Positions 259 through 45,491 of a stretch of DNA of 64,000 nt are shown in pieces. The stretch lies in NCBI GenBank assembly GCA_031458775.1, contig JAVKJV010000002.1, forward strand, positions 42,233 through 106,232. The letters run 5' to 3'. The position numbers were made by a program, and so were the translations under genes. Each line of letters starts with the position of its first letter. Positions within the stretch are counted from its first letter, which is position 1. The notes under the pieces are model-generated. The model worked only from the letters and a program-made list of their open reading frames with translations. It was not told the origin of the DNA and did not search any database. The DNA is from Candidatus Fervidifonticultor quartus. GTDB lineage: Bacteria > Sysuimicrobiota > Sysuimicrobiia > Sysuimicrobiales > Humicultoraceae.

Positions 259-1120
259 CGCGCGTCGCAATCCTGGTGAACCCGGTGCGATTCGGGACCG
301 ATCCTGAGTCGGTTGATCACCTCCGCGACGCGCTGCAAGTGCTCTTTGAGCGCGGCCTCGACGTTCGCATGAACGTGGCGGGCGCGCGCATCGCGGGCCG
401 GCCCGATCTCGAGGCCCCGGATGCCGAACTCGCCGAGGGTGCGGATATGCTTGTGGTGCTGGGCGGCGACGGCACCATCCTGTCGGCGGCGCGCTTGGCT
501 GCCGGGCGGGTGCCGATCCTGGGCGTCAACCTTGGGGGTCTGGGCTTTCTGGCCGAGATCCCCTTGCGCGAGTTGCCGGGTGCGCTGGCCGAGGTGGTGC
601 GCGGCGAGTTGGTGATCGACGAACGCGCGATGCTTGAGGCCGAGATCATTGGGCCGTCAGGCGCGCGCACGCGGGCCGTCGCGCTCAACGACATGGTCAT
701 CGCCAAGACCGGCGTGGCTCGCGTGATCCATCTCACGACGTCGGTGAACGGTGAGCATCTGGCGACGTACCCGGCGGACGGCGTGATCATCGCCACGCCG
801 ACCGGTTCCACGGCCTACTCACTGTCAGCCGGCGGGCCGATCGTCCATCCGCAAGTGGACGTCATCGTCGTGACGCCGATCTGTCCGCACACGTTCACCG
901 CGCGGCCCGTGGTGGTATCGGGCGGCGCGACCGTGACGGTGGAAGTCCAAATGCGGGCGGACGAAGTGTGTCTCAGCGTGGACGGCCAGGCGAGCCACGA
1001 CCTCTTCGCCGGCGAGCGGGTTGTGGTCCGGCGTGCGTCTGAGCGCACGCGACTCGTCCGTCTGCAGGCCAACAGCTTCTATGGGATCTTGCGGACAAAG
1101 CTCGGGTGGGGATCGCGCTG

Positions 1121-1121
<1 letters not shown>
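255..1121 (+). CDS. nadK: NAD kinase
   Basis: Motifs VVLGGDGTILSAARL and DGVIIATPTGSTAYSLSAGGPIV. GTG 255 overlaps the tlyA stop (GTGA). An in-frame GTG at 231 is an alternative start. Confidence 0.9.
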
Positions 1122-4503
<3,382 letters not shown>

Positions 4504-4514
4504 GCGCGCGCGCC

Positions 4515-5042
4515 ATGAGTCTCGAACCGACGGTCGCATCGAGGGCGATCTACCGCGGTCGCGTGGCGACGCTCCGCGTGGATGACGTGCGTATGCCGAG
4601 CGGCCGCATCGAGCGCCGCGAGATCGTCGAGCACCCGGGCGCCGCGGCCGTCGTGCCGGTGACCGACGACCACGAGGTTGTGATGGTCCGGCAGTATCGC
4701 AAGGCGGTGGAGAGCGCACTCCTTGAGATTCCGGCCGGGACGCTCAACGCCGGCGAGACCGCGCTTGCCTGCGCGCACCGCGAACTGGCGGAAGAAACCG
4801 GGTTGGCCTGCGATGTCATGATGCCGCTGATCACCTTCGTGCCGTCGCCGGGGCTGCTGACCGAGGAGATCACGCTCTTCTTGGCCCGGGGCTTGCGGCC
4901 GGTACCCCGGATGGTACAGGCTGAGGAAGAGGGGCTGCAGGTCGTGCGCGTGCCGGTCGACCAGATTGCGCAGCTGATCAGCCGGGGGGACGTGCGGGAT
5001 TCGAAGACCATCATCGGGTTGATGCTCCTCTCGTGGCGGTGA
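4515..5042 (+). CDS. nudF: NUDIX hydrolase, ADP-ribose pyrophosphatase-like
   Basis: Nudix box GTLNAGETALACAHRELAEETG. N-terminal beta region YRGRVATLRVDDVRMPSG is typical of ADPRase. Start set at ATG 4515 (MSLEPTV...). Confidence 0.8.
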   Translation: MSLEPTVASRAIYRGRVATLRVDDVRMPSGRIERREIVEHPGAAAVVPVTDDHEVVMVRQYRKAVESALLEIPAGTLNAGETALACAHRELAEETGLACDVMMPLITFVPSPGLLTEEITLFLARGLRPVPRMVQAEEEGLQVVRVPVDQIAQLISRGDVRDSKTIIGLMLLSWR

Positions 5043-5060
5043 GCCGGTGATGCGGCGATC

Positions 5061-6059
5061 GTGACGTCGCCTGACCGCGGCCGGACGCGGGCCGAGTCCC
5101 GGGCGCTCAGCGCGGCCCTTGACGAGTTCCTCACCTACCTGACCGCCGAGCGCGGGCTTGCGCCCCGCACGGTCACCGCCTACCGTCACGACCTCGAGGA
5201 GTTCATCACCTTCGCGGCTCGCCGGGGCGCGCGCGGACCCGCCGACCTGCACCGGTCCGCGATCACCCTCTACCTGCTCGGCCTGCGGCGCCGGGGTTTG
5301 GCCGACACATCGGTCGCGCGGCGCCTGGCCGCGGTACGCGGATGGACCGGGTTCCTACTACGTACGGGTGCCATTGTCGACGATCCGGCACTGGACGTGA
5401 CGGCCGCGCATCGGCCGCGCCGTTTGCCCGACGTGCTCACGGTGGAAGAAGTGGAACGGCTGCTTGCGCAGCCGCGCGGCGACCGACCCCAGGTGCTGCG
5501 CGATCGGGCGATTCTCGAGCTGCTCTATGCCGCCGGCTTGCGCGTCAGTGAGCTGGTGGCCCTTGACGTGGGCGACGTGCACCTGGCGGTCGAGTACGTG
5601 CGGTGCGTCGGCAAGGGCTCCAAGGAGCGGATCGTGCCGATCGGGTCGGCTGCGGTGCGCGCGCTCCAGCGCTATCTCGCGCTCGCGCGGCCGGTGCTTG
5701 CAGGCGGGCGGCCGCAGCCGGCGCTGTTCCTCAACCGTCGGGGCGGCCGGCTGACCCGTCAGAGCGTCTGGACGCTGCTCCGGCAGTGCGCGCGGTCCGC
5801 GGGCCTGCGCAAGCCGATCCACCCGCACACGCTGCGGCACTCATTTGCCACGCACCTGCTGGACGGCGGCGCCGATCTGCGGGCGGTCCAGGAGATGCTG
5901 GGCCACGCGAGTATCGCCACGACGCAGGTCTACACGCATCTCACGCGGGCCCGGCTGCGCGAGGTGTATCGGCGAGCGCACCCGCGCGACCGCATGACCA
6001 TCCCCATCGGTCGAGGCGCGGATCGCTCTCGACCCGCGCCGTCGGCGCACCATGGCTAA
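5061..6059 (+). CDS. xerD: Site-specific tyrosine recombinase XerD (chromosome dimer resolution)
   Basis: Core-binding N-terminus [26 protein letters not shown]. Catalytic region [12 protein letters not shown]...[14 protein letters not shown]...[13 protein letters not shown] (R-H-R-Y). Bacillus-like xerD-deoB-punA context. About 28-aa C-terminal tail overlaps the deoB start. Confidence 0.88.
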
Positions 6060-7227
6060 GGCCAGTTGCGTCATCGTGCTGGTCCTCGACAGCCTTGGCG
6101 TCGGCGGCGCACCGGACGCCGCGGCCTATGGTGACGAGGGCAGCGACACGCTGGGGAATTGCGCGGTCGCATCTGGCGGCGTGCATCTGCCGGTGCTGGA
6201 GCGGTTGGGCCTGGGCGCGATCACCGAGGTGGCCGGGGTGCGACGGCGCGACGACCATGAGGCCGCGGTCGGCGTGATGCGTGAGCAGTCCGCAGGCAAG
6301 GACTCGACCACCGGGCACTGGGAGCTGGCCGGGCTGGTGGTCTCCAGGCCCTTTCCCACGTACCCCAGCGGATTCCCGGCCGAGGTGATTGACGCGTTCT
6401 CCAAGGCGATCGGCCGACCGGTGCTCGGCAACGTCGCCGCGTCGGGCACCGAGATCATCAAGGCGTTGGGTGAGGAGCACGTGCGGACCGGTGCGCCCAT
6501 TGTGTACACCTCGGCCGACAGCGTGTTTCAGATCGCCGCGCACGAGGAGATCGTGCCGCCGGACCAGCTCTACGCGTGGTGCCGTGAGGCGCGGACGATT
6601 CTCCAGGGCGAGCACGCGGTCAGCCGCGTGATCGCCCGGCCGTTCGTGGGGCTGCCGGGCGAGTTCCGGCGCACGGATCGCCGTCGGGACTTCTCACTGC
6701 CGCCGACCGGACCGACGGTGCTCGATGCGCTCGCCGCGGCGGGCCTGGCCGTGGTCGGGGTGGGCAAGATCGATGACCTGTTCGCCGGGCGCGGACTCAC
6801 CGAGGCGATCCACACACACGACGACATGGACGGCCTCACGCAGACCGTGGCCGCGATGCGACGGGTGGGGCACGGGCTGGTGTTTACGAACCTCGTCGAG
6901 CTCGACACGGCCTACGGGCACCGCAACGACGCGATCGGTTATGCTCGGCACCTCGAGGCCATTGACGCGCGCCTGGTGGAAGTCCTCGACGCGTGCGGAC
7001 CGGACGATGTGCTCATCATCACCGCCGATCACGGCAACGATCCGACGACGCCGAGTACCGACCACTCGCGTGAGCAGGTGCCGGTGCTGGCCTGGCGGCC
7101 CGGGCTGCCGCGCGGTCGCCATCTCGGTCTGCGGCGGTCGTTCGCCGACGTCGGCGCGACCGTCGCCGCGGCGCTCGGCGTGCCGTGGGCCGGGGCGGGC
7201 ACGGCGTTTTGGACGGCCCTGGAGTAG
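6052..7227 (+). CDS. deoB: Phosphopentomutase
   Basis: [16 protein letters not shown]-terminus and [11 protein letters not shown] metal-binding motif, 391 aa. Confidence 0.92.
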
Positions 7228-7291
7228 GCGCCGACGGCTTTCTGCCGAAACCCATCAGCACGATGGCTGGTGCGCGAGAGAGGGGAGATCG

Positions 7292-8116
7292 ATGAGCTGG
7301 GCATTGCGCGCTCGTGAGGCCGCCACCGCGATCCGCCAGCGGACCCGCCGCGTGCCTGATGCGGCGGTGATTCTCGGATCAGGGCTGGGGGCGCTGGCAG
7401 ACCAGGTGACCGTGGACGCCGCATTGACGTTTCAAGAGATTCCGCACTTCCCGCGGACCAGCGTGGAGGGGCACCACGGCCGGCTCCTGATCGGCACGCT
7501 CGAGGACCGGGCTGTGGCCGTGATGCAGGGTCGGGCCCACTTCTACGAGGGATACGCGATGGCGGAGGTGGCGTTTCCCGTTCGTGTGCTGCATGCGCTG
7601 GGCGCGCCGATCTTGATTGTCACCAACTCGTCCGGCGGACTGAACCGGCACTTCAAGGCGGGCGACCTCATGGTCATCGCCGACCACATCAACTTCATGG
7701 GCACGAATCCGCTCGTCGGGCCTAACGAAGACGAATTGGGGCCCCGGTTCCCGGACATGTCCGAGCCCTACGACCCCGCGCTCATCGAGCTGGCCGAGGC
7801 CGCGGCGCTGGAGGTCGGCATTCCGCTGCGCAAGGGCGTCTACGTCGGCGTCTGCGGCCCGTCGTACGAGACCCCAGCAGAACTGCGCATGATGGCGCGC
7901 TGGGGCGCGGACGCGGTGGGGATGTCCACCGTGCACGAGGTGATCACCGCGCGGCACGCCGGCATGCGCGTGCTGGGCCTGTCGGCGATCACGGACATGG
8001 CGACCGGTGAGGGCCACGGCAAGGTCACCCACGAGGACGTGCTGGCAGCCGCCAAGCGGATTGAGCCGCAGTTCGTGCGACTCGTGCGCCGCATCGTGCG
8101 AGGGCTGCCGCGATGA
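7292..8116 (+). CDS. punA: Purine nucleoside phosphorylase (trimeric PNP-I type)
   Basis: ILGSGLGALAD, HFPRTSVEGHHGRLLIG, GMSTVHEVITARHAGMRVLGLSAITD. ATG 7292 follows GAGAGGGGAG RBS-like purines. The 5' part of track ORF 6725-8116 overlaps deoB out of frame. Confidence 0.92.
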   Translation: MSWALRAREAATAIRQRTRRVPDAAVILGSGLGALADQVTVDAALTFQEIPHFPRTSVEGHHGRLLIGTLEDRAVAVMQGRAHFYEGYAMAEVAFPVRVLHALGAPILIVTNSSGGLNRHFKAGDLMVIADHINFMGTNPLVGPNEDELGPRFPDMSEPYDPALIELAEAAALEVGIPLRKGVYVGVCGPSYETPAELRMMARWGADAVGMSTVHEVITARHAGMRVLGLSAITDMATGEGHGKVTHEDVLAAAKRIEPQFVRLVRRIVRGLPR

Positions 8117-8156
8117 ACCGCCAGCCCCTCACGGCGACGCGAGCCAGACGGGATTC

Positions 8157-9503
8157 GTGATCCGGCCAGCCGAGCTCATCCAGAAGAAGCGTGACGGCGG
8201 GGCGCTGTCGGGCGAGGAGATTGGCACGCTCGTCCGCGGGTTTGTTGCCGGCGACATTCCCGACTATCAGATGGCCGCGTTCCTGATGGCGGTCTTCTTC
8301 CGCGGGCTCAGCGCCGATGAGACCTCGGCGTTGACGCAGGCGATGGTGCGGTCGGGCGAGGTGCTCGACCTCGGGCCGCTGGCGGGCCGAGCCGTGGACA
8401 AGCACAGCAGCGGCGGCGTGGGCGACAAGACCTCCCTCGTGCTCGTCCCCCTGGTGGCGTCGGCCGGCGTGCCGGTGCCGAAGCTCTCGGGCCGCGGGCT
8501 TGGACACACCGGCGGCACGCTCGACAAACTGGAGTCGATTCCAGGATTCCGCACCAATCTGACGACGGCCGAATTCATCGAGCAGGTTGGCCGCGTCGGA
8601 TGCGCGATTGCCGGGCAGAGCGCGTCCATCGTGCCCGCGGATGCGAAGCTCTACGCCCTGCGCGATGTGACCGCCACGGTTGAGAGCATTCCGCTGATCG
8701 CGGCCAGCATCATGTCGAAGAAGCTCGCAGCCGGCGCCGGGGCCATCTTGCTCGACGTCAAGTGCGGCCGGGGCGCGTTCATGAAGACCGAGGACGCCGC
8801 CCGTGAGTTGGCGCAGACGATGGTGGAGATCGGCCGGACGGCCGGCCGCCGTGTGGCGGCCGCGATCACCGGCATGGACGTACCCCTGGGCCGGGCCGTG
8901 GGCAATGCGCTCGAGGTGGCCGAGGCCATCGCCACGCTGCGGGGCGAGGGTCCGCCCGACCTCCACGCGCTGTGCCTGGACCTGGGTGGCTGGATGCTCG
9001 TGCTCGGTGGGCGTGCCGCAACGCCTGGCGAGGGACGGGTCGAGGTCGAGCGCCGGCTCCGTTCGGGCGATGGGCTGGCGCGGCTGGCAGCGATGATCGA
9101 AGCGCAGGATGGCGATGCGGGCGTGATCGAACATCCGGAGCGTCTTCCGCGGGCATCGGTGCAGGTGGTCGTGCCGTCGCCCGGCGCCGGCGTGATTGCC
9201 GCGATCGACGCCGCCGGCATCGGGCTGGCCGCGATGCGCCTGGGCGCCGGCCGGATCAGGAAGGGCGACCCGGTGGACTCGGCGGCGGGCGTGGTGCTGA
9301 TCCGCGTAGTGGGTGAGGCGGTGCGCGCCGGGGATCCGATTGCCGTGGTGCACGCGCCGGATCCCACCAGAGCGGACGCGGCGGTCCGCGAGGTGGCGGC
9401 CGCGTATGCGATCGGCGAGCACGCGCCGCCACAGCGACCGCTGATCCGGACCGTCGTGCAGGAGGCGGATCACGGCCGTGCGGCCGGCGGCGGGTCGGGG
9501 TGA
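8157..9503 (+). CDS. pdp: Pyrimidine-nucleoside (thymidine) phosphorylase
   Basis: DKHSSGGVGDKTSLVL and SGRGLGHTGGTLDKLESIPG motifs. Start placed at in-frame GTG 8157 (VIRPAELIQKKRDG...). Start uncertain. Confidence 0.9.
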   Translation: MIRPAELIQKKRDGGALSGEEIGTLVRGFVAGDIPDYQMAAFLMAVFFRGLSADETSALTQAMVRSGEVLDLGPLAGRAVDKHSSGGVGDKTSLVLVPLVASAGVPVPKLSGRGLGHTGGTLDKLESIPGFRTNLTTAEFIEQVGRVGCAIAGQSASIVPADAKLYALRDVTATVESIPLIAASIMSKKLAAGAGAILLDVKCGRGAFMKTEDAARELAQTMVEIGRTAGRRVAAAITGMDVPLGRAVGNALEVAEAIATLRGEGPPDLHALCLDLGGWMLVLGGRAATPGEGRVEVERRLRSGDGLARLAAMIEAQDGDAGVIEHPERLPRASVQVVVPSPGAGVIAAIDAAGIGLAAMRLGAGRIRKGDPVDSAAGVVLIRVVGEAVRAGDPIAVVHAPDPTRADAAVREVAAAYAIGEHAPPQRPLIRTVVQEADHGRAAGGGSG

Positions 9504-9532
9504 TGCGGCGGGATGATCAGGAGGCGACAACG

Positions 9533-10381
9533 ATGATTCGTCGTGTGGGAGTCGTGGGGTGCGGGCTGATGGGCTCGGGTATCGTCGAGGTCGCCGCGCG
9601 GTGCGGCTACGAGGTCGTCGTGCGCGAGGTGACGCCGGTGTTGCTGGAGCGCGGACTCGACCGCATCGACGCGTCGATGCAGCGGGCGGTCGACCGCGGG
9701 AAGTTGGAGGCCGCAGCCCGAGAGGCCGCGCGGAGCCGCATTCGAGGGACGACCTCGCTGACCGATGTGGGCAACTGCGATCTCGTCATCGAGGCCGTCG
9801 TGGAGAAGATGGACGAGAAGAAGGCGGTGCTGCGCGAGCTCGACGGGCTGCTGAGGCCGGAGGTGATCATGGCCAGCAACACGTCGTCGCTCTCGATCAC
9901 GGAGATGGCCGCGGTCACGGCGCGGCCGGAGCGAGTGGTGGGACTACACTTCTTCAATCCCGTGCCGGTCATGGCCCTGGTCGAGATCGTGCGTGGCCTG
10001 CAGACGTCGGAGGCGACCGTGCAGACGGTACGCGCGTTCGCGCAGTCGCTCGGCAAGACCGTCGTCATGGCCAAAGACGCGCCCGGGTTCATTGTGAACC
10101 GGCTGCTCATCCCGTATCTCCTCGATGCGATCCGCGTGCTGGAACTCGGCGTGGCGTCGCGCGAGGACATCGATACCGCCATCACGTTGGGACTCGGACA
10201 TCCGATGGGGCCGCTGACGCTGATGGACTTTGTGGGACTCGACACCACGTACTACATTGCGGAGGCGATGTTTCAGGAGTTCAAGGACGATCGCTACGCG
10301 CCGCCGCCGTTGCTGAAACAGATGGTGCTGGCGGGCTGGCACGGCCGGAAGAGCGGCCGGGGGTTCTACGAGTACGGATAG
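9533..10381 (+). CDS. hbd: 3-hydroxybutyryl-CoA (3-hydroxyacyl-CoA) dehydrogenase
   Basis: Rossmann VGVVGCGLMGSGIVEV, VGLHFFNPVPVM, PGFIVNRLL. AGGAGG RBS 9518-9523 before ATG 9533. Confidence 0.9.
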   Translation: MIRRVGVVGCGLMGSGIVEVAARCGYEVVVREVTPVLLERGLDRIDASMQRAVDRGKLEAAAREAARSRIRGTTSLTDVGNCDLVIEAVVEKMDEKKAVLRELDGLLRPEVIMASNTSSLSITEMAAVTARPERVVGLHFFNPVPVMALVEIVRGLQTSEATVQTVRAFAQSLGKTVVMAKDAPGFIVNRLLIPYLLDAIRVLELGVASREDIDTAITLGLGHPMGPLTLMDFVGLDTTYYIAEAMFQEFKDDRYAPPPLLKQMVLAGWHGRKSGRGFYEYG

Positions 10382-10394
10382 TCGGGGGTGCATC

Positions 10395-12125
10395 ATGTGG
10401 GCTGTCGTTCGCCGGGTCACCCTGCTGGCGTTGGGCGGGGCGTGGATTGCGGCCCCGTTGGCCGCGGCGCCGATCCCGGGAGTTCCCAACCCGAAGGTGG
10501 CCGTCGAGGCGCCGGAGATCGGCCGATACGGCGGCACGCTGGTGGTCGCGCAGGTGAGCGAGCCCCGTACCTTTAACCCCGTCATCTACACCGACACGTC
10601 CACGGGCGCGGTGCTCGCGCCCATCTTCGACGCGCTCGTCGAGGTGAACTACCTGACCGGCGAGATGGAGCCGTCGCTCGCGGCGTCGTGGACGCTCAGC
10701 CCTGACCGGCGGACGTGGACCTTCGTGCTCCGCGAGGGCGTGCAGTGGTCGGACGGCCGGCCACTCAACATGGACGACGTGGTGTTCAGCCTGGAGACCG
10801 TGTTCACGCCCGGCGTGCAGAGCACGACGCGCGACCTGCTGATGTTTGACGGCAAGCCGCTCCGGTGGCGCCGGCTGGATGCGCGCCGGATCGCGTTCAG
10901 CACCGAGCAGCCCGCGGGCTTCTTCCTGCGTCAGATCAGCGGCCTCACCGTCATTCCACAGCACAAGCTGTCGGCCGCGCTGGCCAGGGGCGGGCAGGCG
11001 TTCAACACGACCTGGGGCGTCAACACCCCGCCCAACGAGATCGTCGGCACCGGGCCGTTCGTGATGCAGATGTACGCGTTCGGCCAGCGCGTGACGTACG
11101 CCCGCAACCCACGCTACTGGCACGCCGACCGTGCGGGCCAACGGCTGCCGTACCTCGACCGCTACGTGCTGCTGTTCGTGCCGAACCTCGATGCCGAGAA
11201 GCTCAAATTCCTGGCCAAAGAGACCGACCTCTATGGCGCGCGGCCGCGCGAGTACGCCGAGTTCAAGGCCGGTGAAGCCGCCGGCAACTACACGGTCTAC
11301 GACGGTCCGGAGACCTTTGCGTCGCAGTACCTGGTCTTCAACCAGAACCCGCGCGGGCTCGCGCCGCCGAAGCTCACCTGGTTTCAGGACGTGCGGTTTC
11401 GCCGCGCGCTGAATCACGCGATCGACCGGCAGGCCATCGTCCGGCAGGTCTACGCCGACCGAGCCACGCCGTCGTGGAGCCCGGTCAGCATCGCCGATGC
11501 ACGCTACCACAACCCCAACGTCCGGAAGTACCCTTACGATCTCAAACGCGCACAAGATCAACTGGCCGAGGCCGGCTTCACGAAGGACGCCGCCGGCCGG
11601 CTGCGCGACGGCCAGGGCCATGCCGTGGAGTTCGAGCTCTCGACCGTGGCGCAGAACGCCGATGCGGTGGCGATCGGCAATATCGTCCGGCAGGATTTCG
11701 AGCGGCTCGGTATCAAGGTCACGTTCACGCCCGAGCCGTTCGCCACCCTGGTGACCAAGCTCGACAATACGTTCAAGTGGGACGCCATCATCATCGGCCT
11801 GACGGGTGACAACGAACCCGGGACCGGCCGCACCTATTGGATGAGCTCGGGTGCGCTGCACGATTGGAATCCGCGACAGCCGAAGCCGACGACCGCGTGG
11901 GAGGCCGAGATCGACCGCATCTTCGAGCAGGTCGCGCGGGAGACCGACGTGGCCAAGCGGCGTGCGCTCTACTGGCGCTGGCAGGAGATCGTCGCCGATC
12001 AGGTGCCGGTCATGTACTTCACGAACCCCAAGACCCAGCCGGTCGTGCGCAACACGCTGGGCAACACGCGTCTCGGGTTGCAGGGTCAGACGAGCCGGCT
12101 GGACTGGCGGTACTATCGGCGCTAG
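10395..12125 (+). CDS. ABC transporter substrate-binding protein, family 5 (peptide/nickel/opine type), secreted
   Basis: N-terminal signal-like MWAVVRRVTLLALGGAWIAAPLAAAP. 576 aa, with conserved family-5 blocks (WSDGRPLNMDDVVFS, RNPRYW, YLVFNQ, FRRALNHAIDRQAIV). No permease or ATPase genes adjacent. Confidence 0.8.
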   Translation: MWAVVRRVTLLALGGAWIAAPLAAAPIPGVPNPKVAVEAPEIGRYGGTLVVAQVSEPRTFNPVIYTDTSTGAVLAPIFDALVEVNYLTGEMEPSLAASWTLSPDRRTWTFVLREGVQWSDGRPLNMDDVVFSLETVFTPGVQSTTRDLLMFDGKPLRWRRLDARRIAFSTEQPAGFFLRQISGLTVIPQHKLSAALARGGQAFNTTWGVNTPPNEIVGTGPFVMQMYAFGQRVTYARNPRYWHADRAGQRLPYLDRYVLLFVPNLDAEKLKFLAKETDLYGARPREYAEFKAGEAAGNYTVYDGPETFASQYLVFNQNPRGLAPPKLTWFQDVRFRRALNHAIDRQAIVRQVYADRATPSWSPVSIADARYHNPNVRKYPYDLKRAQDQLAEAGFTKDAAGRLRDGQGHAVEFELSTVAQNADAVAIGNIVRQDFERLGIKVTFTPEPFATLVTKLDNTFKWDAIIIGLTGDNEPGTGRTYWMSSGALHDWNPRQPKPTTAWEAEIDRIFEQVARETDVAKRRALYWRWQEIVADQVPVMYFTNPKTQPVVRNTLGNTRLGLQGQTSRLDWRYYRR

Positions 12126-12958
12126 ACCGGCGGCGGGACGGCGACCGGGCCGGTCGGCGCCGGTTTGAAGACCGCCGGTGAGAGCGGCCGTGCCGCGCTA
12201 GCGAACCGCGCCGAGGCCTCCGCGGCCAGCGAGGCGCATTCGCCCGACGGCGCCACGAGCAGGACCGACTCCTCGGGGATTGCCACGAGCGGATCGTCCA
12301 CGCCGGCGGGCACGAGCATCTCGGCCACCAGCAGCCGCGTGGCGTCGAGCCCATCGAGGTGCTCGTACCGCCGCCGCGGGCCGCCGATGTCTTCCAACAG
12401 GTGCCGCGTCTGCGCACGGAGATTCTCGAGGGCCAGCGCGTGCAGCGTGTCGGCGGTCTGGCGCCAGGCGCCCAGCGTGTGCTGTGTGACCGCCGTGTAC
12501 TGATGCACGCCGCCGATGACGTACGTCACGGCCACGCCGCCATCCAGCGGCCGGGAGACCAGGCGCTGGGCCGGGGGGTAGTGCTCGAACACGGCCACGT
12601 AGTCCGCGGGTTTCAGTTGAGGCAACACGCGGTCCTGCACCAGGGCAAACGGCGGCGCCTCGGGTACCGGGACCCGGGCGCGCATGCCGGAGACGATCTC
12701 GTCGAACCACCCAGGCTCGGCACGGTCGCGCGGCCGCTGCCGCAGTAGCGTGGCCAGGTCGAGGTCGATCTCCGTGCCGAGCGCTCGCGCCCGGAACCCG
12801 GTGTCGGTGAGCGCGGTCACCGTGATCTCCGGCGCGGCGCGCGAAAGGTGGGCGAGGAGCCGCGACCGCACGCCGGCGAAGCGCCGGTATGACGAGGCCA
12901 CGGCACCGGCCGCAAGGGCGACCACGACCACGGCGATCACGATGACGGTCTCGAGCAT
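12122..12958 (-). CDS. Membrane-anchored hypothetical protein, DUF1444/YtpQ-like (tentative)
   Basis: N-terminal TM helix MLETVIVIAVVVVALAAGAV. C-terminal PLVAIPEESVLLVAPSG resembles the YtpQ-family ...ISVPHQDVLILAD block. Its stop overlaps the stop of the convergent binding-protein gene (CTAG). Confidence 0.5.
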   Translation of the reverse strand: MLETVIVIAVVVVALAAGAVASSYRRFAGVRSRLLAHLSRAAPEITVTALTDTGFRARALGTEIDLDLATLLRQRPRDRAEPGWFDEIVSGMRARVPVPEAPPFALVQDRVLPQLKPADYVAVFEHYPPAQRLVSRPLDGGVAVTYVIGGVHQYTAVTQHTLGAWRQTADTLHALALENLRAQTRHLLEDIGGPRRRYEHLDGLDATRLLVAEMLVPAGVDDPLVAIPEESVLLVAPSGECASLAAEASARFASAARPLSPAVFKPAPTGPVAVPPPV

Positions 12959-13038
12959 GCCCGGTGTCCACTATAGCGCAAGTGGAGGGGCTTCCTCCCG
13001 CAGCGCAGAAGTACCACGCCGAACTCCACGAGGGCTGC

Positions 13039-14184
13039 ATGGCTGTCGAGCTGTCCGACGAGCACCGGATGATTCAGGCGACAGTCCGGGAGTTCGCTGC
13101 CCGCGAACTCCTCCCGATTGCCGCGGATCTGGACCAGAGGCCGCGCTATCCCGCCGACGTCGTCGCCAAAGCCGCCGACCTCGGCCTGATGGGGATGATG
13201 GTGCCCGAGGAGTATGGCGGTCAGGGGCTGGACCCGCTTGCCTACGTGATCGCGCAAGAGGAGCTGGCCCGTGTCTCGGCCGGATTCCAGACCATCGTCA
13301 CGGTGAACAACTCGCTGGTCTGTGACCCAATCCTCCAGTTCGGCACCGAGGAGCAGCGTCGCCGGTATCTGCCGGGGCTGGCATCAGGCCGGACGCTCGG
13401 CTGCTACTGCCTGACCGAGCCGACCGCAGGGTCCGATGCGATGTCGCTCCGCGCGAGCGCAGTCCTGCGCGACGGCGAATGGGTGCTTTCCGGGACCAAG
13501 GTCTTTGTGACGAATGGGGTCGAAGCTGACCTGTGTGTGGTCTACGCGCGAACCGAGGACACCAAGGGCGCGCGCGGCATCTCGGCGTTTCTGGTCGAGA
13601 AGTCGTTTCCCGGCGTGACCGTGGGCAAGGTCGAGCACAAGCTCGGGATCAGGTGCTCGTCGACGGCCGAGGTGGTCTTCGACGAGTGCCGTGTGCCGGC
13701 GGACAACCTGCTCGGGCAGCGGGGCGACGGCGGCAAGATCGCGCTGGCCACGCTCGACGGCGGCCGCATTGGGATCGCGGCGCAGGCGCTGGGGATCGCG
13801 CGCGCGTCGCTCGAAGACGCCACGGCCTACGTCCGGCAGCGCCACCAATTCGGTGCGCCGGTCGCCACATTCCAGGCGGTACGCTGGGCGCTCGCCGACA
13901 TGGCCACGCGGCTTGAGGCGGCGCGGCTGCTCACCTATCGCGCCGCGGCGCTGCGCGCGGCCGGTCAGCCGCATGCGCGGGAGGCCGCGATGGCCAAGCT
14001 GGCCGCATCGGAGACCGCGATGTTCGCCGCGCACAAGGCGGTGCAGCTCTTTGGGGGCTATGGCTACATCCAGGAGTACGCGGTGGAACGCTACTTCCGG
14101 GACGCCAAGATCACGGAGATCTACGAAGGCACGTCGGAGATCCAGCGCATGGTCATTTCGCGGTCGCTGCTGAGCCGACGCTGA
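13039..14184 (+). CDS. bcd: Short-chain (butyryl-CoA type) acyl-CoA dehydrogenase
   Basis: ACAD signatures CLTEPTAGSDA and QLFGGYGYIQEYAVERYFRDAKITEIYEGTSEIQ. 381 aa from ATG 13039. Followed by etfB-etfA. Confidence 0.9.
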   Translation: MAVELSDEHRMIQATVREFAARELLPIAADLDQRPRYPADVVAKAADLGLMGMMVPEEYGGQGLDPLAYVIAQEELARVSAGFQTIVTVNNSLVCDPILQFGTEEQRRRYLPGLASGRTLGCYCLTEPTAGSDAMSLRASAVLRDGEWVLSGTKVFVTNGVEADLCVVYARTEDTKGARGISAFLVEKSFPGVTVGKVEHKLGIRCSSTAEVVFDECRVPADNLLGQRGDGGKIALATLDGGRIGIAAQALGIARASLEDATAYVRQRHQFGAPVATFQAVRWALADMATRLEAARLLTYRAAALRAAGQPHAREAAMAKLAASETAMFAAHKAVQLFGGYGYIQEYAVERYFRDAKITEIYEGTSEIQRMVISRSLLSRR

Positions 14185-41760: not shown

Positions 41761-41814
41761 GGGTGCGAAATCTCCGGCAACGCCGTATCCGACCGATCCA
41801 GGAGCCGTGACGCC

Positions 41815-43209
41815 ATGCCGCGTGAACCCATGCCCGATCTCGTCGTGCTCCTTCCCGGCATCTGCGGCAGCGCGCTGCGCAAGGACGGTCGCGATCTGTG
41901 GGCGATCTCCGGGGACGCGGCGAGCCGCCTGCTCTTCAGCCTGGGCCGCAGCCTCGGCGACCTGAGGCTCACCGACGACCCGGCGGACGTCGACGATCTC
42001 GGCGACGGCATCACTGCCGACCGGCTGATCGCCGACCTGCACCTCATCCCCTATCTGTGGAAGATCGACGGGTACACGAAGGTGGCCGACACACTCAAAG
42101 CGACCTTCGAGGTCACTCCCGGCCGCAACTATTTCGAGTTTCCCTACGACTGGCGTCGTGACAACCGCGTGGCGGCCCGCCGCCTCCAACGGGAGAGCCG
42201 ACGATGGCTCGCCGACTGGCGACAGTCGTCCGGGAACGCGGACGCCAAGCTGATCCTCATCGGCCACTCGATGGGCGGCGTCGTGTCCCGATACTTCCTC
42301 GAATGTCTGGACGGCTGGCGCGAATGCCGGGCGCTCGTGACCTTCGGCACACCGTACCTGGGGGCCCTCAACGCCCTCGACTTCCTCGCGAACGGGATGC
42401 GCAAAGGCCCGGCCGGCGTCGTTGACCTTTCGGGTCTCATCCGTTCGCTGACGTCCGTCTACCAGTTGCTGCCGGTCTACGACTGCTATGATCCTGGCGA
42501 CGGGACGCTGGTGACGGTCGGCAAGACCACGGGCGTCCCCAACGTGGATGCCGGTCGCGCCGCGGCCGCCTACGCGTTCCACCGCGAGATCGCCGACGCG
42601 GTCGCGCGGCACCGGCAGGACGACGAGTACGTCCGCCAGGGGTACAAGATCTTCCCCATCGTGGGGACGCACCAGCCGACGCAGCAGTCGGCGCGCCGGA
42701 CGGCAACCGGCGTCGAGATGGCGCAGGCCCTGGCCGGCCGCGACGACGGCGGTGACGGCACGGTGCCGCGGGTCTCGGCCACGCCGGTCGAACTGCAACA
42801 GTTGGGCCGTGAGATGTACGCGGCGACGCGCCACGCGTCCCTCCAGAACGCCGACGCGGTGCTGGCGCAACTGCACGGTGTCATCACGGGACTGTCCCTG
42901 TCGGTCCCGAAACCGTTCCCGGTGCGGCTCGACGTGGTCCGGCTCGGCCTCGACCTCGACGACGCCTACTGGACCGACGAGCCGGTCGAGGCGCGCGTGC
43001 GCGGCCGCGCCGGCGAGGATGTGGTCGTGACCGTCAGCAGCGCAGCCACCGGCGCCCAGGTGGCCGCGCGGCCGATTGCCCTTCAGGATGCCCCGTGGAC
43101 TCCTGCGCCATTCAGTCCCCTGCCCGCCGGAACATATCGCATCACGGTCTCCGGGCATGAACGTGTCGAGCCCGTGGCCGACATCTTTGCGGTCTTCGAA
43201 CATCGCTAG
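41815..43209 (+). CDS. LCAT/PGAP1-like alpha/beta-hydrolase (lipase/acyltransferase) with C-terminal beta-rich domain
   Basis: Nucleophile elbow LILIGHSMGGVVSRYF (Ser152), GGDGTVP (Asp314), TRHASLQN (His340). FEFPYDWRRDN is the LCAT-family YDWR block. About 100-aa C-terminal beta-strand-like region (RITVSG..., VVVTVSS...). AGGAG RBS 10 nt before ATG 41815. Confidence 0.75.
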   Translation: MPREPMPDLVVLLPGICGSALRKDGRDLWAISGDAASRLLFSLGRSLGDLRLTDDPADVDDLGDGITADRLIADLHLIPYLWKIDGYTKVADTLKATFEVTPGRNYFEFPYDWRRDNRVAARRLQRESRRWLADWRQSSGNADAKLILIGHSMGGVVSRYFLECLDGWRECRALVTFGTPYLGALNALDFLANGMRKGPAGVVDLSGLIRSLTSVYQLLPVYDCYDPGDGTLVTVGKTTGVPNVDAGRAAAAYAFHREIADAVARHRQDDEYVRQGYKIFPIVGTHQPTQQSARRTATGVEMAQALAGRDDGGDGTVPRVSATPVELQQLGREMYAATRHASLQNADAVLAQLHGVITGLSLSVPKPFPVRLDVVRLGLDLDDAYWTDEPVEARVRGRAGEDVVVTVSSAATGAQVAARPIALQDAPWTPAPFSPLPAGTYRITVSGHERVEPVADIFAVFEHR

Positions 43210-43259
43210 CCGCGCGACCCCGCCGATGCGGGGGATTCCGAGATCTGGAGGCGGGCCAC

Positions 43260-44057
43260 ATGGCATGTCGGGAGAGTTCTATCGATTTTCTGCGGGGCTT
43301 GGGATATACGCCCATCCAGTTGCCGCGTGAACGCATTCACCCGCTCGACCTGGTGGGGAAACTGGCGGGCGGCGGCCGCGCGAAGCAACTGGGTTCACTC
43401 ACCAAGCTCGTCGTCGGCGCGGTGCCGGCACCCGAGATTGCCCGTGACGAGCAGGTCGGACAGGTGAGCGGCAAGCGGACCGACAAGCTCGATATCGGGA
43501 TCGGGCTCAATCTGCTTTCGAAGTTCTTCTCGGCGCTTGGGGTCTTCTCGGCCTCGATCAGCGCCGCGTTTGCGCGGGCCAAGCAGGTCGAGTTTCAATA
43601 CGAGAACGTGACCTCCGATTCGGTGGACATCGTCGACCTGCGCGGCTATCTGGGGAAGCGGCCGTCCCTGGACCCGAACAACCCGGTGGTGGACGATTAC
43701 TTCATCGGCGACGGCCAGGTGGTGGTGATCACGCGAACGCTCAAGTCCACCGGGTTCGGCGTGTTGGCGTCCGACGAGAGGGGCAACAAGGTGGACATCG
43801 ACGTCGACGTTCTCAAAGAGGATCTGGCCAAGGCCGGAGTGGATGCCGCCAGGGGCTCAGAGATGAAGGTATCGTTCAAGGGCACCAAGCCGCTCGTCTT
43901 TGCCTTTCAGGGACTGATGCTGCGCATCGACACCGGCGGATTACGGGTGAGCGACGATGTGCCCGCGGAGCTGGGCATCTTCGCGTCCAGGCCGGCTGCT
44001 GCCGGTGAGGCCGCCCCGGTGGTGCTCACGCGGAACGGGCTGCTGCGGCTCGACTGA
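43260..44057 (+). CDS. Bacterial gasdermin (bGSDM)-like pore-forming protein
   Basis: 265 aa with no TM helix or signal peptide. Starts MAC (Cys3). IDFLRGLGYTPIQLPRERIHPLDLV, KRTDKLDIGIGLNLLSKFFSALG, VEFQYENVTSDSVDIVDLRGYL, VVVITRTLKSTGFGVLASDERGNKVDIDVDV and KVSFKGTKPLVFAFQGLMLRID follow the bGSDM block pattern as I recall it. Short about 30-aa C-terminal tail. GGAGG RBS 8 nt upstream. Protease gene immediately downstream. Confidence 0.72.
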   Translation: MACRESSIDFLRGLGYTPIQLPRERIHPLDLVGKLAGGGRAKQLGSLTKLVVGAVPAPEIARDEQVGQVSGKRTDKLDIGIGLNLLSKFFSALGVFSASISAAFARAKQVEFQYENVTSDSVDIVDLRGYLGKRPSLDPNNPVVDDYFIGDGQVVVITRTLKSTGFGVLASDERGNKVDIDVDVLKEDLAKAGVDAARGSEMKVSFKGTKPLVFAFQGLMLRIDTGGLRVSDDVPAELGIFASRPAAAGEAAPVVLTRNGLLRLD

Positions 44058-44093: not shown

Positions 44094-45491
44094 ATGGAGT
44101 TCATATCCACGAACGGCATCGACCTGCGCACCGGGCGGCCGGTGTTTCACCGGGTGCCGTTCCAGGAGTTCCTGCAGGTCTTCCACAACCGGCTGCCGGC
44201 GCCGCGCGAAGACGAGGAGCGGCGCCGTGCCACGACGAGCGCGCTGAGCACCACGCGCAGTATCTTCGCGGCCACGACGAACCTCAACGATCCCGTCGCG
44301 GCCGGCTACGGCGTGGTCTGTGCGCCGGGCCGCGTGCCCCTGCTCGACGGGGCCCTGGCGCCGCTGCTGGCGTGGCGCCAGGTGAAACCCGAGCACCGGC
44401 TTGTCCTTGACATCGCCCAAGTGGGGATCGGCGGGTTATCGGACTGGATGGACGAACACATCACGTTTCGCGACGGGCCGTACTACTGGTTGCTTGTGGG
44501 CGGTCCGGCCGAGCTGCCCTTTGACCTTCAGTGGATGCTGGATGCGGGCAAGGCCGCGGGCCGTATTGAGTTCGACGATGAGGCTGAGTACGCGGCGTAC
44601 GCGGAGCGTGTGATCCGGGCCGAGCAGGTGCTCGCCGCGTCACACGGGGCACCGCCGGTGTTCTTCTGGTCGACCCTCCACGACGACGTCACCAGGCTGA
44701 GCAACTGGTACATGTGCACGCCGCTGGTGAAGCGGCTGGAGAGCCACGGCGTCAACGTGACCTATCGCGAGAAGGCCGACGCTACGGTGGACGCGTTCTG
44801 GAGTGCGGCCAGGGCGTGGGGGACGCGCGGCGGGCTCGTCTACACGGCCAGTCACGGTGGCATGCTGCCGAACGACGACGCCGAGCAGCCTGCGCGTCAG
44901 GGTGCGCTCGTGGCCATGGACGGCACGATCGAGGGTCAGCAGGTCGATCGGGAGCGGTCGGCGTTCCCGCACTCGGTCGTGTTCAACTTCGCTTGCTACT
45001 CGGGAGGGACGCCCTCGCACAGCGACTTCAATCACTGGGTTCCCGAGTACCACCTGGGCCGGTACATTCCGCAGACGGCATTCGTCTCGCGGCTGCACCG
45101 GCGGTGGGTCGCGCACCCGGCCGGCCCGCTGGCCGCGGTGGGCCACGTCGAGCCGGCGTGGCTCCACTCGTTTGCGAATCCGGACAATCCGGACGACGTC
45201 ATGTTCGACGCCGCGCTGGACACCGAGTGGGGGGAGCGTATCCAACCGTTCCGTACCTTCACCGACCGGCTGGTAAGGGGGTATACCGTCGGCTACGCGA
45301 TGGAACTGTTCGGGTTTCTCTATGATCAACTGGGGAATGACATCGCCCGGCGCATCAACCGGTACCTGCGCGACAACCCGGGCGGCGCGGTGAACGAACA
45401 GGAGTTGCGCAAGATGGCGACGCGCTGGATCAGCCGCAACGACTATCAGAACTACGTGGTCTTCGGCGATCCGGCGGTGCGCATCGCGTGA
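44094..45491 (+). CDS. Clan CD cysteine protease (caspase/gingipain C25-like), probable gasdermin-activating protease
   Basis: His-Cys dyad in caspase-like spacing: LVYTASHGG (His254, CAC 44853-44855) and VVFNFACYSGG (Cys301, TGC 44994-44996). C25-like blocks PYYWLLVGGPAELPF and C-terminal NYVVFGDPAVRI. AGGGAG RBS before ATG 44094. No NACHT, TPR, WD40 or LRR-like repeats visible. Confidence 0.7.
   Translation: MEFISTNGIDLRTGRPVFHRVPFQEFLQVFHNRLPAPREDEERRRATTSALSTTRSIFAATTNLNDPVAAGYGVVCAPGRVPLLDGALAPLLAWRQVKPEHRLVLDIAQVGIGGLSDWMDEHITFRDGPYYWLLVGGPAELPFDLQWMLDAGKAAGRIEFDDEAEYAAYAERVIRAEQVLAASHGAPPVFFWSTLHDDVTRLSNWYMCTPLVKRLESHGVNVTYREKADATVDAFWSAARAWGTRGGLVYTASHGGMLPNDDAEQPARQGALVAMDGTIEGQQVDRERSAFPHSVVFNFACYSGGTPSHSDFNHWVPEYHLGRYIPQTAFVSRLHRRWVAHPAGPLAAVGHVEPAWLHSFANPDNPDDVMFDAALDTEWGERIQPFRTFTDRLVRGYTVGYAMELFGFLYDQLGNDIARRINRYLRDNPGGAVNEQELRKMATRWISRNDYQNYVVFGDPAVRIA

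Follow-up and report, generated by a model that had tools for sequence, protein, structure and literature searches.

A predicted cytoplasmic LCAT/LPLA2-fold hydrolase next to a bacterial gasdermin belongs to a family partnered with caspase-fold proteases and is a candidate protease-dependent effector

A stretch of 64,000 nucleotides from Candidatus Fervidifonticultor quartus (assembly GCA_031458775.1, contig JAVKJV010000002.1, positions 42,233 to 106,232; the whole stretch is called here the window, and positions below are counted from its first letter) harbours three consecutive genes on its forward strand. Their products correspond to a serine hydrolase of the LCAT/LPLA2 fold (hereafter, the lipase; 464 amino acids, positions 41815 to 43209), a bacterial gasdermin of 265 amino acids (bGSDM; positions 43260 to 44057) and a clan-CD cysteine protease of the gingipain/CHAT-like type (465 amino acids, positions 44094 to 45491). 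The present work deals with the lipase, which was delimited by its open reading frame, Pfam matches, a structural model and a family alignment, and whose conserved partner across its family was a protease, not gasdermin. The original prediction, made from the letters alone, had placed an LCAT/PGAP1-type Ser-Asp-His hydrolase at the head of a gasdermin operon. This arrangement was confirmed: the second gene was recognized as gasdermin by PADLOC (bGSDM, 1.5e-65) and NCBIfam (prok_gasdermin, 3e-55), and the third as a protease by PADLOC ("chat", 3.6e-34). The gasdermin gene adjoins the protease gene, as in bacterial gasdermin-protease defence systems.

The lipase gene is preceded by an AGGAG ribosome-binding site (positions 41800 to 41804, forward strand, by sequence reading) located 10 nucleotides 5' of the ATG, and homologues share the same MPREPMPD start in the alignment. 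The protein carries the motifs of an intact serine hydrolase of the LCAT family. The FPYDWR block that is a signature of this family occupies residues 109-114 (positions 42139 to 42156), with D112, W113 and R114 invariant, and aligns with PYDWRR of LPLA2 (PDB 4x90). The nucleophile elbow GHSMGG, with Ser152, was located at residues 150-155 (positions 42262 to 42279); in 84 of the 150 aligned homologues it reads AHSMGG, as in LCAT and LPLA2. The catalytic Asp314 lies within GDGTVP (residues 313-318, positions 42751 to 42768) and the catalytic His340 (codon at positions 42832 to 42834) within RHASL (residues 339-343), and the triad of S152, D314 and H340 was invariant in 150/150 homologues. The Pfam LCAT profile (PF02450) matched with an E value of 6.1e-14 and 52.5 bits against a cut-off of 21, the match spanning residues 82-223 only (profile positions 59-204 of 392), and weaker matches to PGAP1 and DUF676 were also above their cut-offs. 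By sequence, the closest solved structure was the group XV (lysosomal) phospholipase A2, with an alignment that spans PYDWRR and AHSMG. Neither a signal peptide nor a transmembrane segment was found in the lipase (N-terminus MPREPMPDLVV..., maximum Kyte-Doolittle 19-residue mean of 1.28), in agreement with the cytoplasmic location that had been predicted; the predicted enzyme class was supported as well.

An AlphaFold2 model obtained from a 32-sequence alignment (pLDDT, predicted local distance difference test, 84.4; pTM, predicted template modelling score, 0.75) displayed an alpha/beta core and, beyond a linker disordered at residues ~363-372, eight beta strands between residues ~375 and ~461, with low confidence at the loop 77-81 and at the loop carrying His. 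The top Foldseek matches against the Protein Data Bank (PDB) corresponded to LPLA2 (4x92, 4x97 and 4x90; E values of 2e-12 to 4e-12, template modelling (TM) score of 0.6 on the target) and LCAT; taken together, the LPLA2 and LCAT matches presented E values of 2e-12 to 2e-9, TM scores of 0.52-0.60 on the target and a root mean square deviation of about 8 Å. The inter-domain linker (residues ~361-374, positions 42895 to 42936) combined the lowest conservation with the lowest model confidence (mean conservation of 0.33 for residues 361-380; pLDDT < 50 at residues 363-372), and is a candidate regulatory or cleavage region. The C-terminal part (residues ~375-464, positions 42937 to 43206) was modelled as an Ig-like beta-sandwich, with Foldseek matches to Ig-like CARDB and macroglobulin MG domains, so the beta-rich additional domain of the original prediction was borne out. 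This domain was found across the lipase family but was variable (conservation of 0.35-0.5). According to the motifs and the model, the window gene encodes a cytoplasmic, catalytically intact hydrolase of the LCAT/LPLA2 fold, which we take, with moderate confidence, to be a lipid esterase. Since the fold points to phospholipid as substrate, the enzyme probably acts on membrane phospholipid as a phospholipase or acyltransferase, and the assignment thus provides a concrete substrate hypothesis (membrane phospholipid, with phospholipase A or acyl-transfer chemistry).

The lipase belongs to a large and widespread family. More than 4,500 related proteins were retrieved in a word-indexed search, the best 120 of which were all ~460 amino acids long and at least 54% identical. 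At E ≤ 1e-30, the family comprised 671 clusters at 50% identity. In a collection with one genome per species, at least 578 matching stretches encoded a relative. These relatives were distributed among Armatimonadota, Actinomycetota, Acidobacteriota, Gemmatimonadota, Chloroflexota, Pseudomonadota, Myxococcota and Cyanobacteriota; no homologue was found in the phage collection. Members of the family are labelled in public records as "hypothetical protein" or "pimeloyl-ACP methyl ester carboxylesterase", and the association with proteases described below suggests a better annotation for thousands of them.

The genomic neighbourhood of the family was surveyed on either side of the lipase gene in 80 loci from genomes and 80 from metagenomes. 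Open reading frames were called in Python and used to build hidden Markov models of the neighbours, which were checked against Pfam; two clusters of open reading frames overlapping the lipase gene itself (c1, 117/145, and c2, 21/21) were discarded as artefacts of alternative or antisense reading frames. A locus was considered well flanked when 2.5 kb or more was available on each side (55 genome and 23 metagenome loci). A CHAT, Peptidase_C14 or C25-like gene was fused to the lipase or located within 1.5 kb of it in 46 of these 55 genome loci and 19 of the 23 metagenome loci (65/78 in total). The linkage was local, a gene of this kind being present at 1.5 kb or less in 40 of the 48 fully flanked loci and, as a distance control, at 3 kb or more in 2/48, and linkage or fusion spanned Armatimonadota, Actinomycetota, Acidobacteriota, Gemmatimonadota, Pseudomonadota, Myxococcota, Cyanobacteriota and other phyla. 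According to Pfam, same-strand neighbours that were downstream or fused comprised 22 CHAT and 10 C14 proteins, and those upstream 11 C14, 6 CHAT and 3 C25 proteins. Opposite-strand CHAT neighbours, once suspected to be artefacts, were confirmed by Pfam as CHAT-CBM9 and CHAT-CHASE2 proteins.

Fusion of the two partners was frequent. Lipase-CHAT fusions were present in 10/80 genome loci and accounted for around one tenth of the family representatives; the LCAT-CHAT combination was found in seven of the nine long representatives tested, with the lipase always N-terminal. Separate partners typically displayed the architecture TCAD7-DUF7363-CHAT, and the partner modules of many loci were TPR, WD40, CHASE2, NACHT/NB-ARC or STAND. 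Loci devoid of a caspase-fold gene often carried a trypsin-like protease (L074), a kinase-TPR protein (L063) or an NB-ARC-TPR protein (L067), and NACHT neighbours were found in other caspase-free loci on Sphaerospermopsis and Rhizobium plasmids. The analogy with NLR-type immune lipase effectors that had been drawn beforehand therefore held, with members of the family located beside CHAT, caspase, NACHT and NB-ARC proteins.

Read qualitatively, the lipases clustered in a neighbour-joining tree according to the class of their partner and the arrangement of the genes, suggesting that lipase and protease co-evolve as stable pairs. The dependence appeared to be asymmetric: a lipase neighbour was absent from four distant homologues of the window protease, so the protease has other clients whereas the lipase nearly always has a protease, as would be expected if the lipase were an effector or substrate. 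It was also, in two-gene loci, the only conserved enzyme other than the protease and is the sole candidate effector there. The combination of a conserved catalytic core with a variable linker and C-terminal domain is likewise expected of an effector with a regulatory part tailored to its cognate protease.

The third gene of the window, which encodes the protease, was characterized in the same way. Its His254-Cys301 dyad (codons at positions 44853-44855 and 44994-44996, forward strand) was invariant in a 34-sequence alignment. The window protease had no Pfam match, and its homologues were annotated as Peptidase_C25. Its AlphaFold2 model (pLDDT 89.3, pTM 0.91) matched in Foldseek gingipain K (1.6e-8), followed by SAVED-CHAT, Craspase TPR-CHAT and separase, all of them of clan CD. 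The gasdermin begins with MAC and hence possesses Cys3, and this start with the conserved Cys3 was common to the window gasdermin and its relatives in the alignment. The gaps between genes amounted to 50 nucleotides between lipase and gasdermin (positions 43210 to 43259) and 36 nucleotides between gasdermin and protease, each of them containing a ribosome-binding site, which in the former is GGAGG at positions 43247-43251. No terminator-like site was found between the three genes, and from the short spacing and the conserved synteny it is a reasonable inference that they are co-transcribed. A terminator or structured element in the 50-nucleotide spacer was also considered and discarded, as the hairpin was not conserved in loci L001, L002 and L081 and the z-score of the fold energy was -0.30. 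The cassette is flanked by genes for an FAD oxidoreductase, RibD_C and GNAT proteins, and its wider setting includes paa genes together with those for an MFS transporter and SecDF. The G+C content was 0.668 at positions 42001-44000 of the window vs. ~0.70 in the flanks; this slight dip over the lipase-gasdermin region is compatible with acquisition as a cassette, although the difference is small.

The order lipase, gasdermin, protease was retained in L001, L002 and L174. The more extended order RibD_C, lipase, gasdermin, protease and GNAT recurred in these loci, the former two being metagenome-assembled genomes of Armatimonadota and the latter Armatimonadetes RBG_16_67_12. In L081 the upstream neighbour was different and the adjacency of lipase and gasdermin was retained. 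In L175, from a close relative (JGI Ga0453689_0002529, positions 293-3500), RibD_C was followed by a gasdermin (75% identical) and a protease (63% identical) at the same syntenic spot, and neither a lipase gene nor a remnant of it was present at that syntenic position. This showed that the gasdermin-protease pair can dispense with the lipase, which is an optional module of the cassette. A further arrangement was found in the metagenome-assembled genome of Archangium sp. (L057, positions 758-10146), with a TPR-CHAT gene (1388 amino acids), a lipase-CHAT fusion (1114 amino acids, positions 5998-9342) and a gasdermin in a row. Seven related myxobacterial lipase-CHAT fusion loci lacked gasdermin, and L057 represents a second, independent emergence of lipase and gasdermin as neighbours. 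Overall, gasdermin adjoined the lipase in three of the 80 genome loci (L001, L002 and L057) and in none of the 80 loci from the metagenome collection, and two more cases were obtained through protein look-ups (L081 and the contig carrying P0010). Conserved linkage of the homologues was thus established with respect to the protease and did not hold with respect to gasdermin.

Two further observations concern the cassette in relatives. In L174, an additional CHAT gene of 383 amino acids is located on the opposite strand (positions 6455-7606, reverse strand) between the protease and GNAT, without a counterpart in the window. The protein P0136 (301 amino acids, encoded in a Logan contig of 7008 nucleotides) is a chimera in which residues ~128-255 of the lipase are joined to residues ~290-465 of the protease; this equals a deletion of the lipase C-terminus, the entire gasdermin and the protease His, and looks like a decayed copy of the cassette.

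The reading that we prefer for these data, with fair but not high confidence, is that the lipase is a latent, protease-dependent, lipid-hydrolysing death effector deployed beside gasdermin, and that its family is a dedicated partner of clan CD proteases in bacterial conflict or defence cassettes. According to this proposal, the lipase would be held latent until the active protease licensed it, either by cutting it or through the variable linker and the C-terminal Ig-like domain; in parallel, the protease would remove the inhibitory gasdermin tail, and lipid hydrolysis together with pore formation would kill the infected or stressed cell. The cassette would then probably carry two protease-controlled, membrane-attacking death effectors. 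A more far-reaching version, which we put forward only tentatively, holds that a single clan-CD protease licenses an LCAT-type phospholipase/acyltransferase and a gasdermin that act together, and that such an arrangement has more than one origin, being represented by the Armatimonadota clade, by Archangium, where a lipase-CHAT fusion accompanies gasdermin, and by L163, a locus combining an MBL-fold gene with a lipase. As an example of joint action, hydrolysis or the resulting lysolipid might lower the barrier to gasdermin insertion, or the damage might be wider than that caused by pores alone. If true, this would constitute a bacterial counterpart of caspase-driven multi-effector cell death.

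The closest precedent for the preferred reading is found in the pairs of alpha/beta-hydrolases and caspases. Kaur et al. (2020; PMC7159879) reported that the caspase domain in VMAP and GAP1 conflict systems is always accompanied by a neighbouring alpha/beta-hydrolase gene, and alpha/beta-hydrolases were later counted among the effectors acting on membrane lipids by hydrolysis (Kaur et al., 2021; PMC8195603). In a preprint, Evans et al. (2025; PMC12642450) described LcHydrolase of Lysobacter capsici as a zymogen that is cut by LcCaspase after Arg73 and Arg117 (R|G), at sites flanking an inhibitory middle fragment, to yield a toxic product; the substrate of the caspase-associated alpha/beta-hydrolase is, according to the same work, still unknown. 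The window cassette resembles these pairs, LcHydrolase being compared by description, in having a cytoplasmic lipase-like hydrolase beside a caspase-superfamily protease. Both groups are widespread in Actinobacteria and Proteobacteria, with partners containing WD40, TPR or STAND, and the CHAT partners of the lipase family in other loci carry TCAD7, a domain defined in the ternary systems of Kaur et al. In contrast with those pairs, the window protease is gingipain/C25-like and a gasdermin lies between hydrolase and protease, and unlike in the MoxR-vWA-VMAP ternary system, MoxR, vWA and VMAP genes are absent from the window.

Several results weigh against the preferred reading. No cleavage site was identified in the lipase, and the two conserved Arg|Gly sites of the LcHydrolase type were absent from the lipase family alignment. 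The only conserved R-G in the family was R182-G183 (R in 91% of sequences), with L182 in the window protein, and none appeared at N-terminal positions. LcHydrolase, of ~33 kDa, is also far smaller than the 464-residue window lipase with its LCAT/LPLA2-type core and C-terminal Ig-like domain. No model in PADLOC or NCBIfam matched the lipase, and no recognizable sensor domain was present in the cassette.

Among the alternatives, the one that deserves most consideration, although we judge it rather improbable, has the lipase acting ahead of the protease, in the role of sensor, scaffold or activator instead of terminal effector; for instance, it could sense a change in membrane lipids, or hold the protease at the membrane by means of LCAT-type interfacial binding, and thereby turn on the protease. 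The window protease, with its 465 residues, and many of the partner proteases are without obvious sensor repeats, so that the input may come from elsewhere; moreover, the N-terminal place of the lipase in the CHAT fusions is a frequent sensor-domain position, and the variable C-terminal Ig-like domain could serve for docking. Nevertheless, the invariant triad argues for catalysis over scaffolding, many partner proteases own sensor-type modules of the kinds listed above, the gasdermin-protease pair persists without the lipase in L175, and in the sole tested alpha/beta-hydrolase-caspase pair the hydrolase acts downstream of the protease (PMC12642450). At the other extreme, the lipase could be a common esterase of metabolism or housekeeping whose position beside a gasdermin-protease pair is incidental, as the housekeeping genes surrounding the cassette and the labels in public records might suggest. 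This is highly improbable: linkage and fusion to proteases across many phyla effectively refute it, and L081 keeps the lipase-gasdermin adjacency despite its different upstream neighbour.

The original prediction had also raised, as a speculation, a link between the lipase and the acylation state of gasdermin Cys3. The enzyme would add an acyl chain from phospholipid to this residue or remove a palmitoyl thioester from it, thereby tuning gasdermin stability or membrane insertion. Acyl-chain transfer is a property of LCAT-family enzymes, Cys3 is conserved in the window gasdermin and its relatives, the proximity of lipase and gasdermin has at least two separate origins (the window clade and Archangium), and the L057 lipase presented a Palm_thioest match, albeit below threshold (3.3e-4, 20.9 bits vs. 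a cut-off of 26.8). Against this, the family-wide partner is a protease, gasdermin neighbours are rare, and L175 holds gasdermin and protease with no lipase. In addition, bGSDM produced in E. coli was palmitoylated and autocatalysis was proposed, and the words "lipase" and "hydrolase" have no occurrences in the text of that preprint (Johnson et al., bioRxiv 10.1101/2021.06.07.447441). For all these reasons the acylation link was not supported, and we consider it unlikely.

The preferred reading, that of a protease-dependent lipid-hydrolysing effector, can also be set against other known systems. As in the bacterial gasdermin-protease systems (Johnson et al., 2022), the window contains, beside a caspase-like protease, a bGSDM that possesses Cys3 as well as a short C-terminal tail, and the mechanism expected for those systems, cleavage-activated pore formation, would be shared by the window cassette. 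Unlike the described bGSDM systems, the window operon is headed by a third, enzymatic gene, with a family-wide link of its own to this protease class. With LCAT and LPLA2 (PLA2G15, PF02450; PDB 4x90 and 5txf) the lipase shares the order and spacing of the triad, the (A/G)HSMG elbow and the PYDWR block, and its modelled fold is closest to theirs, whereas it differs from these secreted or lysosomal enzymes in being bacterial and apparently cytoplasmic, with ~15-19% identity and an added Ig-like domain.

Lipases serve as immune effectors in other settings. CapV is a patatin phospholipase effector in CBASS (cyclic-oligonucleotide-based anti-phage signalling systems). SesB-like and patatin lipase effector domains have been described in fungal NLRs (PMC12881547). 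The window lipase is comparable to both as a presumed lipid-hydrolysing effector associated with an NLR or signalling module, some members of its family being located beside NACHT or NB-ARC, but it belongs to another alpha/beta-hydrolase family and is coupled mainly to proteases instead of being NTPase-fused or nucleotide-activated. A further parallel is offered by the pairs of MBL-fold nucleases and proteases (Tuck et al., 2025, PMC12799240; Evans et al., 2025), in which a latent enzyme effector co-evolves with a protease. These pairs and the lipase family have both been recombined with many sensors, the target being DNA for MBL vs. presumably lipid for the lipase. The two themes meet in L163 (JGI Ga0299907_10000581, positions 578-10360), where one strand encodes a CHAT-STAND-Ig protein (1256 amino acids), an MBL-fold protein and a C25-like protease, and the divergent strand a lipase and a TPR-guanylate-cyclase protein. 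L163 may be another two-effector cassette (MBL nuclease type plus lipase) built around one protease.

The pairing of a hydrolase with a caspase-like protease that gates its effector activity is already known (PMC7159879, PMC12642450). Three aspects appear to be new, with no precedent found in the literature searched: the identification, on a very large scale, of proteases as partners of an LCAT/LPLA2-fold family that bears an Ig-like tail; a lipase and a gasdermin in one operon, with one protease and two candidate executioners; and the independent recurrence of this layout in Archangium, with the parallel case of L163. Death effectors under protease control, of which gasdermin is the best known, are increasingly seen as a central principle of bacterial immunity. 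The three-gene cassette is a compact natural system in which one protease faces two candidate substrates, and it could reveal whether a single caspase signal is distributed to several executioners in bacteria as it is in animals.

Some observations on the linker and on shorter relatives were made in the course of the cleavage-site search. The lipase linker of L001 and L081 contains ...PIGEFFA... and their gasdermin tail ...EFGIFAA..., which might represent an element recognized by the protease in both proteins. The corresponding sequence of the window lipase is ...VPKPFPV... in the equivalent region (residues 361-372, positions 42895-42930, set against gasdermin residues ~238-246, positions 43971-43997). 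A cleavage motif common to the lipase linker and the gasdermin tail was therefore rejected as inconsistent ("GEFFA" vs. "GIFAA" in the two relatives, "PKPFP" in the window lipase). Shorter relatives on Streptomyces plasmids were considered as possible LcHydrolase-like forms and were also discarded, these being proteins of ~500 amino acids in other contexts.

The surroundings of individual lipase-protease pairs provided additional details. In six actinobacterial loci (L008, positions 5113-11100, L012, L015, L024, L033 and L034) the lipase was situated between a short (~290 amino acids) and a long (~800-910 amino acids) C14 caspase, and a gene of the uracil-DNA-glycosylase superfamily then followed in L008 and L024, the two loci scanned. 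The lipase-CHAT pair of L170 (positions 5989-13356), carried by the conjugative plasmid pBsp27S5a of Bradyrhizobium sp. 27S5, adjoined genes for an S8 peptidase, a GNAT protein and an AbiEi/AbiEii toxin-antitoxin pair, a setting that looks like a defence island. In L036 (positions 7389-9650), of the Ilumatobacteraceae type, the CHAT partner appeared by eye to have a segment rich in beta structure at the N-terminus and, after it, several hydrophobic stretches that seem to span the membrane; some of the partner proteases may thus be anchored there.

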